24,785 nt of DNA from an uncultured bacterium. GTDB taxonomy: Bacteria; Hinthialibacterota; Hinthialibacteria; Hinthialibacterales; Hinthialibacteraceae. Below are positions 19,704-24,785 of this stretch, piece after piece. The DNA is taken from NCBI GenBank assembly GCA_964516245.1, contig CAZEZQ010000002.1:1678-26462 (forward strand), read 5' to 3'. The notes beneath the pieces were generated by a model that had not been told where the DNA came from, made no database searches, and saw only the letters and a program-made list of their open reading frames with translations. The position numbers and the translations under genes were made by a program. Each line of letters opens with the position of its first letter. Within the stretch, counting starts at the first letter, position 1.

Positions 19704-21509
19704 ATGAACAAAGTGAGTTCGATAGCCGCCCGCTCCAATACGCTCATTGATTTGCTCCGGCTTCGCTCAGAAGAACATCCAAACCGGCTGGCCTATATAT
19801 TTCTAAACAACAATGAGAGCCAGAACAATTCCACGTTAACGTTTGGTGAATTGTTTCAAAGGGCTCAAGCGATAGCATCCAGACTGCAATCTTTGGAGAT
19901 GGAAGGAGAAAGAGCCATGCTCTTTTACCCTTCGTGTATGGAATATCTGGAAGCATTTTGGGGATGTATTCTAGCCGGTGTAATAGCTGTACCTCTATAT
20001 CCACCTCGTCCCAACCGGAGTTTCGACCGCTTTTTAAACGTAGTGAGAAACGCGGATGCTCGAGTCGCCTTAACGACCACTAACGTGATTAAAGAATACA
20101 AATCTCGGTTCGATCATGAAAGTCATGTAGCCAAAATGACATGGATTGCGTCTGATGATGTGAGTACATGTGAATGCACTCATTGGCAACCACCATCTAT
20201 ATCGCGTGAATCAATTGCTTACCTCCAATATACATCCGGTTCAACATCGACACCCCGTGGAGTTATTGTAAGCCATGAAAATTTACTGGTTCACAATCAG
20301 TTGATGAAAGAATTATTGGGCCATCCAGAAGGCTCAACTATGGGCGCATGGCTTCCGCTCCATCACGATATGGGTTTGGTTGGTTTCGGCATTCAAGGTC
20401 CATATATTGGAGGGCCAGTGTATTGGCAAACTCCATTCGATTTCTTAAAAAAACCGATTCGATGGTTAAAAATGTTATCCGACCATCAAGTCTACACGAC
20501 AGCGGCACCAAATTTTGCGTATGAAATCTGTGCCGCCAAAACCACATTGGAACAACGGGAAGGATTGGATTTGAGCCATTTGAAAATAGCGTACAACGGT
20601 TCCGAACATATACGGGCCAGCACTTGTGAACGTTTTATTTGTGAATTTGAACCGTATGGATTTGATCCCAAATCCCTGGTTGGGGCTTATGGTATGGCGG
20701 AATTTTCTCTGATGGCGACCTGTGGACACATAGAGAAAATGCAATCTTTTGTTGTGGTGAACCGTGAAGCGCTGGATTTTTCTGAAGTCCAAGTTGCTTC
20801 TGAAAATTCCATGAAATCTGTAAAACTCATGAGCAGCGGCCGGATCGCGGACGAAGTTAACTTGCGGATTGTCGATCCTTGGGCACTCACAGTACTTCCA
20901 TCTAACCGAATTGGAGAAATATGGCTCTCGCATGGCAGTGTAGCCAAAGGATATTGGGATGACGGCCAAGCTACACAAGACACGTTTCATGCTTATATTG
21001 CTGATACAGGTGAAGGGCCTTACCTGCGAACTGGAGACTTGGGATTTGTGTTTGAAAACGAGCTGTATGTAACCGGCCGCTTAAAAGAAGTGATTATAAT
21101 AGAAGGCCGCAATCATTATCCCCAAGATATTGAGCAAACAGTGGAACAAATCCATCCTGCCATCCGAACAACAGGTTGCGCTGCCTTTTCGATTACAGAA
21201 AATGATGAAGAAAAACTTGTTGTTTTAGCTGAACTGGACCATCGCTGGAAGCAAGTCGACACATATTCTTCTCCTTTTCAAAATGAACATTTATCAGAGC
21301 GAGTTATTCATCTGCCCACACTGCGAAAAGAAATACGAAAAGCCATTTCAGAAGTACATGATGTACGTCTACACAAAATTGTGTTCTTGAAGTTTGGCCA
21401 AGTCTTAAAGACCACCAGTGGTAAAACCCAAAGAACTGCATGCCGCAATGCGTATTTGTCTGGATTGTTGGAGACGGTTGAAGAATTGTCTAATTTAAAT
21501 GTAGGCTAA
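19704..21509 (+). CDS. Fatty acyl-AMP ligase (FAAL; FadD32/acyl-adenylate-forming starter enzyme of PKS/NRPS lipid loading)
   Basis: 601 aa. AMP-binding core 'YLQYTSGSTSTPRGVIVSHENL'; 'YGMAEF', 'LRTGDLGFV...GRLKEVIIIEGRNHYPQDIE', 'SGKTQR'. The N-terminal 'RLAYIFL' and overall pattern are typical of FAALs that sit next to an ACP-KS PKS. Confidence 0.85.
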   Translation: MNKVSSIAARSNTLIDLLRLRSEEHPNRLAYIFLNNNESQNNSTLTFGELFQRAQAIASRLQSLEMEGERAMLFYPSCMEYLEAFWGCILAGVIAVPLYPPRPNRSFDRFLNVVRNADARVALTTTNVIKEYKSRFDHESHVAKMTWIASDDVSTCECTHWQPPSISRESIAYLQYTSGSTSTPRGVIVSHENLLVHNQLMKELLGHPEGSTMGAWLPLHHDMGLVGFGIQGPYIGGPVYWQTPFDFLKKPIRWLKMLSDHQVYTTAAPNFAYEICAAKTTLEQREGLDLSHLKIAYNGSEHIRASTCERFICEFEPYGFDPKSLVGAYGMAEFSLMATCGHIEKMQSFVVVNREALDFSEVQVASENSMKSVKLMSSGRIADEVNLRIVDPWALTVLPSNRIGEIWLSHGSVAKGYWDDGQATQDTFHAYIADTGEGPYLRTGDLGFVFENELYVTGRLKEVIIIEGRNHYPQDIEQTVEQIHPAIRTTGCAAFSITENDEEKLVVLAELDHRWKQVDTYSSPFQNEHLSERVIHLPTLRKEIRKAISEVHDVRLHKIVFLKFGQVLKTTSGKTQRTACRNAYLSGLLETVEELSNLNVG

Positions 21510-22966: not shown

Positions 22967-24785
22967 ATGGCGGATAAAGCAAAGAACAATTTGAAAAGTC
23001 AAGATATCCAAAATTGGCTCATTACCGAAATTTCAGAGAGATTCGAGTTAAATCTAGATGAAATAGGCGTAAATGAACCGTTTGGTTATTTTGGAATTTC
23101 TTCCAGCGATGCAGTTATATTAATAGGAGACCTTGAGACTTATATAAACCAATCGGTCTCACCAACAGTGTTGTGGGATTATCCTACGATTGAAGAATTA
23201 TCAAATCATCTTGCAAATAATCAACAGAAAAAGCAAGCATCACCAGCGAATCTTCACAGTGTAAATCAAATGGAAGATGTAGCTGTAATTGGAATGGCAT
23301 GCCGTTTTCCGGGCGCCAATTCATTGGAAGAATTTTGGGAATTACTGATTCAGGGAAGATCATCCATTGGTGAAATTCCACAGGACAGGTGGGAGATCGA
23401 TTCGTATATCAATTCGGGTTCAACACAATCTGGTGAAATGAACACTCAATGGATGGGTGCGATAGACAAGCCATATTGCTTTGATGCTTCTTTTTTCGGA
23501 ATCTCCCCCAGAGAAGCCGAAAATATGGATCCCCAACAGCGTGTGCTTTTAGAGGTCACTTGGGAAGCGTTTGAACATGCAGGGATACCAATTCAATCTT
23601 TGCGCGGGTCAGACACTGGAGTATTTATCGGGATATCGACTGATGATTATTCACGTCCCGCGCCACCACAACCAGAGCATTTCAATGCGTATTTTGGGAG
23701 CGGCAATTCTGCTAGCATTGCCGCCAATCGACTTTCATACGTTTATGATTTTCATGGTCCCAGTATATCACTTGATACGGCTTGTTCATCTTCTCTGGTA
23801 GCCATTCATTCTGCCTGTCAAAACATCCAATTGAATGAATGCGATATGGCCGTTGCCGGTGGTGTGAATTTGATTCTTTCACCAGATTTTCATGTGGTGT
23901 TTTCTCAAGCAAATATGCTGGCGGAAGATGGACGATGCAAAACATTCGATGCCTCAGCCGATGGGTATGTGCGTAGTGAAGGTTGCGGCGTCGTGATTTT
24001 GAAACGATTATCCCAAGCCGTTGTGGATAACGACACAATACTTGCCGTGATACGCGGGACTGCCGTGAATCAAGATGGGCGCAGTAATGGTTTAACAGCT
24101 CCAAACGGTCCATCCCAACAAGCGGTAATTCGAAAAGCACTCCAAAAGGCAAAGTTAGAACCCCATCAGATAAATTACATCGAAGCCCACGGAACGGGAA
24201 CATCGTTGGGTGATCCAATCGAAATGGAAGCGCTGAAATCAGTTCTGCTTGAGCATCGAGATAAGAATTTTCCTTGTTTTATCGGATCAGTGAAAACCAA
24301 TATCGGTCACTTGGAAGCCGCCGCGGGAATTGCCGGATTTATAAAAACGGTTATGATGCTGCAACATCGGGAAATTCCGCCGCATTTGCATCTTCAGAAG
24401 CTGAATCCCCATATAGCGATTGATGGATTGCCGATTTCCATTCCAAAGCATCGTATCCCATTGCAAAGCGCATCAACGTCTCATGTGTGTGGAGTAAGTT
24501 CATTCGGATTTGGCGGAACAAATGCGCATGTGATTATCGAAGAAACTCCGCCAGCATTTGAAAAATCATCTATTTCTGAAAAAGAACTACTACGAATGTT
24601 CTCTTTTTCAGCAGCGGATCAAAATGCGCTTACTGATCGAATCAAATCCATCCACGAGTTATTGACTACAAATCCATCCCTATCATTTGAAAACTTATTC
24701 TTTACCTTAACCCAACGGCGCTCCCATTTAGACCACCGCGCGGCAACTGTAGCTGCAACCCGTGAAGAATTTATCTCCCGGTTAA
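22967..24785 (+). CDS. Polyketide synthase (or hybrid PKS-NRPS) module: N-terminal ACP followed by a ketosynthase domain; the 3' end lies beyond the window
   Basis: Not in the ORF track because no stop occurs before the window end. ATG 22967 is preceded by an in-frame TAA 18 nt upstream. Hand translation gives an ACP ('FGYFGISSSDAVILIGDLETY'), then a KS: 'EDVAVIGMACRFPGANSLEEFWELL', active-site 'DTACSSSLVAIHSAC', 'EAHGTGTSLGDPIE', 'GSVKTNIGHLEAAAGIAG'. The frame continues open to 24785. Confidence 0.85.
   Translation, partial: MADKAKNNLKSQDIQNWLITEISERFELNLDEIGVNEPFGYFGISSSDAVILIGDLETYINQSVSPTVLWDYPTIEELSNHLANNQQKKQASPANLHSVNQMEDVAVIGMACRFPGANSLEEFWELLIQGRSSIGEIPQDRWEIDSYINSGSTQSGEMNTQWMGAIDKPYCFDASFFGISPREAENMDPQQRVLLEVTWEAFEHAGIPIQSLRGSDTGVFIGISTDDYSRPAPPQPEHFNAYFGSGNSASIAANRLSYVYDFHGPSISLDTACSSSLVAIHSACQNIQLNECDMAVAGGVNLILSPDFHVVFSQANMLAEDGRCKTFDASADGYVRSEGCGVVILKRLSQAVVDNDTILAVIRGTAVNQDGRSNGLTAPNGPSQQAVIRKALQKAKLEPHQINYIEAHGTGTSLGDPIEMEALKSVLLEHRDKNFPCFIGSVKTNIGHLEAAAGIAGFIKTVMMLQHREIPPHLHLQKLNPHIAIDGLPISIPKHRIPLQSASTSHVCGVSSFGFGGTNAHVIIEETPPAFEKSSISEKELLRMFSFSAADQNALTDRIKSIHELLTTNPSLSFENLFFTLTQRRSHLDHRAATVAATREEFISRL

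Follow-up and report, generated by a model that had tools for sequence, protein, structure and literature searches.

What is made by a gene set that opens with a stand-alone fatty acyl-AMP ligase (FAAL) and runs into a polyketide synthase (PKS) whose first domain is an acyl carrier protein (ACP)? These genes occupy positions 19704-24785 of a 24,785-nucleotide stretch of DNA from an uncultured bacterium of the Hinthialibacterota (contig CAZEZQ010000002.1 of assembly GCA_964516245.1, positions 1,678 to 26,462 of the forward strand), which we refer to in full as the window and which has a GC content of ~40%. An earlier annotation made from the nucleotide letters alone (the original prediction) had interpreted them as the start of a lipid-primed pathway that would combine PKS with nonribosomal peptide synthetase (NRPS) modules. 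Our analysis leads us to a similar view: the interval probably encodes the loading end of a hybrid PKS-NRPS assembly line that is primed with a fatty acid and makes a lipopeptide.

The probable loading end of an assembly line

Genes were called by listing and translating open reading frames (ORFs), followed by a Pfam domain search. The four gene placements and domain calls previously made for 19704-24785 were recovered, with Pfam scores far beyond chance. Visible by sequence are a stand-alone FAAL, an ACP-first megasynthase, a condensing ketosynthase (KS), a linker of the type found between KS and acyltransferase (AT) domains, a type II thioesterase (TEII), an MbtH-like protein and, upstream, an exporter. 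The features of the loading end are as follows:

19704..21509, + strand: stand-alone FAAL, 601 aa, with AMP-binding domain and DIP2-like C-terminal domain
21506..22234, − strand: TEII, 242 aa, PF00975
22308..22547, − strand: MbtH-like protein, 79 aa, PF03621
22548..22966: divergent intergenic region between the MbtH and PKS genes, 419 nt, AT-rich, 25.5% GC
22967..24785, + strand: 5′ part of a type I PKS gene, with ATG at 22967 and no stop up to 24784, open at the window end
23015-23212, + strand: ACP of this PKS, with the phosphopantetheine Ser46 at 23102-23104
23270-24394, + strand: KS of this PKS, with Cys273 at 23783, His408 at 24188 and His448 at 24308
24404-24784, + strand: post-KS linker

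The FAAL is recognized by Pfam through its AMP-binding domain (PF00501, E 3e-54) as well as a DIP2-like C-terminal domain, and it carries the ANL core motifs YTSGST176, YGMAE329, GEIW404 and GDLG444 together with GRNHYPQDIE468. The solved structures that match it best are fatty acyl-AMP ligases without exception, and they align from end to end: 7R7E/F/G, which we take to be an olefin synthase loading domain, align over residues 13-594 (E 4e-138), and 3KXW (E 4e-114), FadD32, FadD23, FadD28 and 3PBK align over their whole length as well. Together with the Pfam result, these alignments uphold the identity first assigned to this protein. FAALs are separated from acyl-CoA ligases by a FAAL-specific insertion in the N-terminal domain (PMC11837247). 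Residues 343-372 align through in the solved FAALs; among the best-scoring matches listed for non-FAAL adenylate-forming enzymes (4-coumarate ligases, luciferases, MenE, other acyl-CoA ligases and A domains), most stop at 342-343 or start at 372-377. As the gap left by the latter is the place where the insertion should lie, the window FAAL, judged by these alignments, has the insertion at residues 343-372. YTSGST and GEI/GEL lie 228 residues apart, as against ~190 in the A domain of an NRPS. NCBI gives the name fatty acyl-AMP ligase to many homologues of 42-45% identity, and one of them is PuwC (42%).

The megasynthase ORF begins with a PP-binding domain (PF00550, aa 17-82), followed by the N- and C-terminal KS domains (aa 102-476; E 7e-101 and 2e-48) and then by a KS C-terminal extension and a CurL-like/RhiE-like KS-AT linker (aa 480-606). 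The best single-domain solved match is the cis-AT KS-AT of CurL (E 8e-161, 540 bits), and the alignment to structures of Pks13 extends from the N-terminal ACP across the KS (residues 11-530, 443 bits). The proposal that the FAAL loads the N-terminal ACP is sustained by this Pfam order, by the alignments to solved structures and by Ser46 of the ACP, which is invariant in comparison with two related loci, L083 and L001 (related loci are given L numbers throughout). The carrier motif around this serine (23093-23110) reads G-I-S-S-S-D and not the usual G-x-D-S, and the same G-x-S-S-S-D substitution occurs in L083.

Is the KS a condensing enzyme? It contains the motifs DTACSSS (aa 270), HGTGT (408) and NIGHLE (445), and its Cys273, His408 and His448 align with the catalytic Cys, His and His of a solved KS. 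Since the triad is intact and aligned, we agree with the previous assignment of a condensing KS and not a KSQ. An ORF stopping just after the KS, the outcome that had been named as contrary to a megasynthase, is not seen inside the window; the ORF runs on for 130 aa, through a complete KS-AT-type linker. The intact triad and the passage of the ORF through the linker rule out both a stand-alone FabF and a KSQ loading domain. A trans-AT PKS was also considered and is less likely, as the KS scores higher with cis-AT CurL than with PksJ (540 vs 422 bits) and its nearest homologues, in L083, L088 and L001, have an AT.

A small neighbour-joining tree of 34 sequences places the window KS as sister to that of L083, with those of L088 and L001 next. 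All of these are first KSs behind a loading ACP, and KSs located after NRPS modules branch far from the window KS. A search of the genome collection with the ACP-KS region found nothing closer than 49-51%, and the KS neighbours in that collection include metagenome-assembled genomes (MAGs) of Desulfobacterales and Parachlamydiales.

The TEII and MbtH genes, which had been described as a pair lying between the FAAL and megasynthase genes, indeed lie there, both on the − strand and both with Pfam support. The TEII (PF00975, E 1e-42) carries the motifs GHSMG (aa 77) and GDHFF (aa 212). The genes that occupy its position in L081, L082 and L083 are 48%, 49% and 45% identical to it, respectively, and a homologue in L087 is 41% identical. 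The MbtH-like protein scores 84 bits with PF03621, for which the cut-off is 27, contains the motifs YSIWP, PLGW and VWSDMRP, and is 74%, 71% and 65% identical to its counterpart at the same position in L081, L082 and L083, respectively.

The FAAL and TEII genes are convergent, with a 4-nt overlap, and the MbtH and PKS genes are transcribed divergently across their spacer. Promoter-like sites around this spacer are no commoner than in shuffled sequence, no terminator-like site was found there, and an Rfam scan of the window, spacer included, returned no match. A Shine-Dalgarno-like purine run is absent before the FAAL, PKS and MbtH starts (19674-19703, 22937-22966 and 22548-22580 were inspected), which may be a trait of the host lineage.

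Related loci and the sequence beyond the window end

If the window holds the loading end of an assembly line, what follows it? The prediction of a hybrid PKS-NRPS is supported by synteny with L083, by the conserved MbtH-like protein, by an exporter of the cyclic-peptide type and by the KS homologue of L088, which is followed by AT-ACP-C. L083 (ENA ERZ21862645 ctg38511l, a 2.56 Mb contig) shares with the window the order and orientation of a small membrane protein, the exporter, a Band7 protein, the FAAL, the TEII (−), the MbtH-like protein (−) and the ACP-KS PKS, with 45-65% identity. In full, L083 encodes a homologue of a lipoprotein in the window (40%), DUF697, the small membrane protein, the exporter, Band7, the FAAL (46%), the TEII, the MbtH-like protein, the PKS and an NRPS; it differs from the window in having neither a hydrolase nor a binding protein between Band7 and the FAAL. 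Its PKS is a 2041-aa protein with the domains ACP-KS-AT-cMT-KR-ACP, the first 613 aa of which are 53% identical to the window PKS (59% in the KS). The NRPS that comes after it has 7340 aa and starts with a docking domain of the TubC type, then C and A.

Other loci share parts of this arrangement. L082 encodes the FAAL (57%), TEII and MbtH-like protein and then ends. L081, the closest relative, of 6.3 kb, holds the C terminus of the lipoprotein, the hydrolase, the FAAL (56%), TEII and MbtH-like protein. In L087, a C-A-PCP-KS-AT hybrid megasynthase is followed by DUF697, a phosphopantetheinyl transferase (PPTase), the small membrane protein, the exporter, Band7, the binding protein and a TEII, such that the exporter/Band7/binding protein/TEII block adjoins an NRPS-PKS hybrid. 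L088, which starts with ACP-KS, contains the KS that is closest by identity (60.5% in the KS). For the FAAL, the KS and the exporter, none of 5.8 billion proteins exceeds 57-60% identity, the source record itself excepted.

In FAAL-initiated hybrids, a fatty acid is activated, loaded on a carrier and extended by type I PKS and NRPS modules (PMC4219810, PMC11837247). In the window organism, the FAAL would adenylate a free fatty acid and hand the acyl group in trans to the N-terminal ACP. The KS would then accept the chain on Cys273 and add one malonyl-type unit, which would be supplied by an AT expected ~45 residues past the window end. By analogy with L083, the domain order may continue with AT-cMT-KR-ACP, followed by an NRPS opening with a docking domain, C and A. 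The chain would thus be handed to NRPS modules, with the MbtH-like protein supporting their adenylation domains; the TEII would clear mis-primed carriers, and the exporter would remove the product, perhaps partnered by the small membrane protein, Band7 and the binding protein. The product is probably a new lipopeptide.

Several observations weigh against a hybrid line. The contig end cuts the cluster short: the window ends in the linker and contains no AT or NRPS domain, and the source contig, with 26,462 bp, adds at most 1.7 kb; a 49-nt pattern taken from the window end was absent from JGI metagenome contigs. A linker does not guarantee an AT, since a 781-aa PKS of L086 has a KS-AT-type linker and no AT. 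The KS tree carries no support values. None of the NCBIfam FAAL models reaches its curated cut-off (433.8 vs 775 bits for PRK05850, 390.5 vs 975 for FadD32); as these models are subfamily-specific, we regard the window FAAL as a divergent member. There is no PPTase in the window, while L085 and L087 carry one in the exporter block. Finally, a Gfo/Idh/MocA oxidoreductase gene and an NYN-like gene come after the MbtH gene in L081 (L081:4671-6279), and no PKS is found there.

The main rival is a pathway with a PKS and no NRPS, in which a single-module PKS would be loaded by the FAAL, elongate or modify the fatty acid and then release it. Such a PKS could have the architecture ACP-KS-AT-DH-ER-KR-ACP-TE, be of the olefin-synthase type or be a Pks13-like condensase, and the MbtH-like protein would then assist an NRPS located elsewhere, or none. 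The best full-length match to the ACP-KS region in the genome collection (L001, 49%) is a single 3117-aa FAAL-ACP-KS-AT-DH-ER-KR-ACP-TE protein without an NRPS, the Pks13 structures cover both ACP and KS, and the best solved match of the FAAL bears the depositor name 'Polyketide synthase'. However, the MbtH-like protein is kept at 65-74% identity in the same position in three relatives, the syntenic L083 goes on into its 7340-aa NRPS, the exporter is of the cyclic-peptide type, and the nearest KS, that of L088, has a C domain downstream. We therefore consider a pathway confined to PKS chemistry unlikely and continue to favor the hybrid PKS-NRPS line.

Upstream genes and the extent of the cluster

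Where does the cluster begin? The original prediction placed its start at 19704, the first nucleotide of the FAAL gene. This boundary does not hold, as conserved partner genes extend back to ~2520-4393. The remaining features of the window are as follows:

38-490: secretin, C-terminal part
1000-1503: AIG2/GGACT-like protein
1582-2202: type II secretion pseudopilin-like protein
2520..2693, + strand: small membrane protein, ~57 aa, read from Met44 of ORF 2391-2693, directly 5′ of the exporter
2750..4393, + strand: cyclic-peptide export ABC transporter with fused permease and ATPase, 547 aa, TIGR01194
4378-13236: 8.8 kb block between the exporter and Band7
13236..14345, + strand: Band7/SPFH protein, PF01145
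14345..15850, + strand: PotD/YdcS-like periplasmic solute-binding protein, SBP_bac_6 and SBP_bac_8
15867-16709: HemK/PrmC-like methyltransferase
17133..18383, + strand: lipoprotein with lipobox and coiled-coil C-terminal half, conserved in relatives
18424..19611, + strand: secreted PAF-acetylhydrolase-like serine hydrolase, PF03403, likely start at Met39 of ORF 18310-19611

The genes that recur with cluster genes in relatives are those for the small membrane protein, exporter, Band7, binding protein, lipoprotein and hydrolase. Because of this recurrence, the cluster start lies upstream of 19704; judged by gene conservation, the cluster extends upstream as far as ~2.5 kb in the window. The secretin, AIG2/GGACT-like and pseudopilin-like genes at the left end (1-2202) appear unrelated to it.

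The exporter scores 320.5 bits with TIGR01194, over the cut-off of 286.2. Its homologues adjoin PKS/NRPS genes in L083 (49% identical), L085 (60%), L086 (47%) and L087 (47%), and its nearest named homologues, at 40-47%, come from Omnitrophota and Opitutaceae MAGs. In L086, itself an Omnitrophota MAG, PKS genes adjoin the exporter, and Gfo/Idh/MocA genes and a DegT aminotransferase gene are also found near the exporter and PKS genes. As the megasynthase genes of L086 and L087 lie on the opposite side of the exporter, gene order in such clusters is plastic. A small hydrophobic protein of ~57-64 aa is encoded directly 5′ of the exporter in three loci (window 2520-2693, L083:6923-7117 and L087:9628-9810). 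The window copy, for which there is no annotation, is 58% identical to its counterpart in L083 and 50% to that in L087, and it may be an accessory subunit of the exporter.

L085 encodes DUF697, the exporter, an Sfp-type PPTase, Band7, the binding protein, the lipoprotein and the hydrolase, and then ends. Band7 is 55%, 68% and 57% identical to the exporter-neighbouring gene of L083, L085 and L087, and for the binding protein, the gene that likewise follows Band7 in L085 and L087 gives identities of 46% and 41%. The binding protein has no cognate permease or ATPase nearby. A polyamine link is conceivable, with an AdoMet decarboxylase gene in the same window. The C-terminal 40 residues of the binding protein resemble, by appearance, a ribbon-helix-helix motif.

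The lipoprotein has no Pfam match. Its Gly38-Cys39 lipobox is invariant in three homologues, its N-terminal half is conserved, and its C-terminal half is a Gln-rich coiled coil; it is 44% identical to the homologue in L085 and 40% to that in L083, and a C terminus is found in L081. The hydrolase (PF03403, E 2e-13) has a signal peptide and the motifs GMSVGG, NMDG and AHFDFSE. It is 61% identical to its counterpart in L081, where the gene lies directly 5′ of the FAAL gene, and 63% to that in L085; in the alignment the two are 61-62% identical to it. Scanning metagenomes with this alignment returned no relatives. Of the upstream genes that had been proposed for tailoring or resistance, those for the hydrolase and lipoprotein are conserved with the cluster, and the proposal does not stand for the methyltransferase. 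The latter is HemK/PrmC-like, with scores under the cut-offs of NCBIfam, and the otherwise collinear L085 lacks it, having no methyltransferase gene between those for the binding protein and lipoprotein. We therefore set it aside as a tailoring enzyme, and it is probably unrelated to the cluster.

It is conceivable, though in our view rather improbable, that the hydrolase and lipoprotein, encoded immediately 5′ of the FAAL gene, act together as a front end for harvesting lipids, freeing fatty acids from host or environmental lipids for use by the FAAL. If this were true, the front end and the recurring export block of small membrane protein, ABC exporter, Band7 and binding protein would make up a lipopeptide system not yet described and restricted to a rare uncultured lineage.

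Could the hydrolase, FAAL, TEII and MbtH genes form a cassette of their own, for example for scavenging or remodelling lipids onto some other carrier, and lie next to the PKS gene by chance? L081 carries the cassette without a PKS after the MbtH gene, and a hydrolase and lipoprotein that are secreted or at the cell surface are atypical for assembly lines. Against this stands the requirement of a FAAL for a holo-carrier acceptor, as the N-terminal ACP of the PKS is the only carrier domain nearby. In addition, L083 retains the FAAL, TEII, MbtH and PKS genes without a hydrolase between Band7 and the FAAL, L081 is only 6.3 kb long, and the gene order is plastic, as seen in L086 and L087. An independent cassette is thus quite improbable.

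The 8.8 kb block raises a further question, which is whether the cluster is still functional. In L083, L085 and L087, the exporter and Band7 genes are adjacent or have only a PPTase gene between them; in the window they are 8.8 kb apart. The intervening genes encode a SET-domain protein (−), the AdoMet decarboxylase (−), a 1073-aa HEAT-repeat protein, an 827-aa HAMP protein and ORFs of 132 and 488 aa. The block is not conserved in relatives, and no mobile-element gene was seen in it. Such a separation of exporter and Band7 by unrelated genes, together with the missing PPTase, would fit a decaying or rearranged cluster whose product is no longer made. However, the cluster ORFs in the window are all full length with intact catalytic motifs, and a PPTase gene can lie at another place in the genome. 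We consider decay highly unlikely and retain the view that the genes belong to a hybrid assembly line.

Comparison with known systems

Our analysis adds a probable FAAL-primed hybrid assembly line from a lineage that has no close relative in the databases searched. Its practical value lies in a better cluster boundary, which reaches to ~2.5 kb in the window, since the accessory set of exporter, Band7, binding protein, lipoprotein and hydrolase is probably left out by genome-mining tools.

How does the locus compare with pathways already described? The cyanobacterial puwainaphycin (PuwC) and jamaicamide (JamA) clusters resemble the window in their FAAL-initiated loading. However, the acceptor ACP in those clusters is stand-alone or fused to the FAAL, whereas in the window it is the N-terminal domain of the PKS, and the window shows neither an aminotransferase nor an NRPS. 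The mycobacterial FadD32-Pks13 system is similar in another respect, as it pairs a stand-alone FAAL with the N-terminal ACP of an ACP-KS-AT PKS, and FadD32 aligns with the window FAAL from end to end. Pks13, however, joins two fatty acids by condensation and is not partnered by an NRPS, and the window KS is closer to the cyanobacterial CurL-type KS than to Pks13 (540 vs 443 bits). Unlike the hosts of the mycobacterial systems, the window organism, with its GC content of ~40%, is not an actinobacterium. The biosynthesis of glycopeptidolipids, which shares this logic, combines a PKS-made acyl chain with an NRPS and a required MbtH-like protein (PMC3537567).

Olefin synthases and other single-module FAAL-ACP-KS-AT-...-TE enzymes, such as that of L001, also place a FAAL before an ACP-KS. 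The architecture of these enzymes has been described (PMC11837247). In contrast to the window genes, they are single polypeptides and lack the MbtH-like protein, the pairing with a TEII and the peptide exporter. The biosynthetic logic of the locus is textbook, in that FAAL-initiated hybrid lines are already known, and its differences from known systems are only of detail: the fusion of the acceptor ACP to the PKS, the odd carrier motif, and the hydrolase and lipoprotein as accessories.

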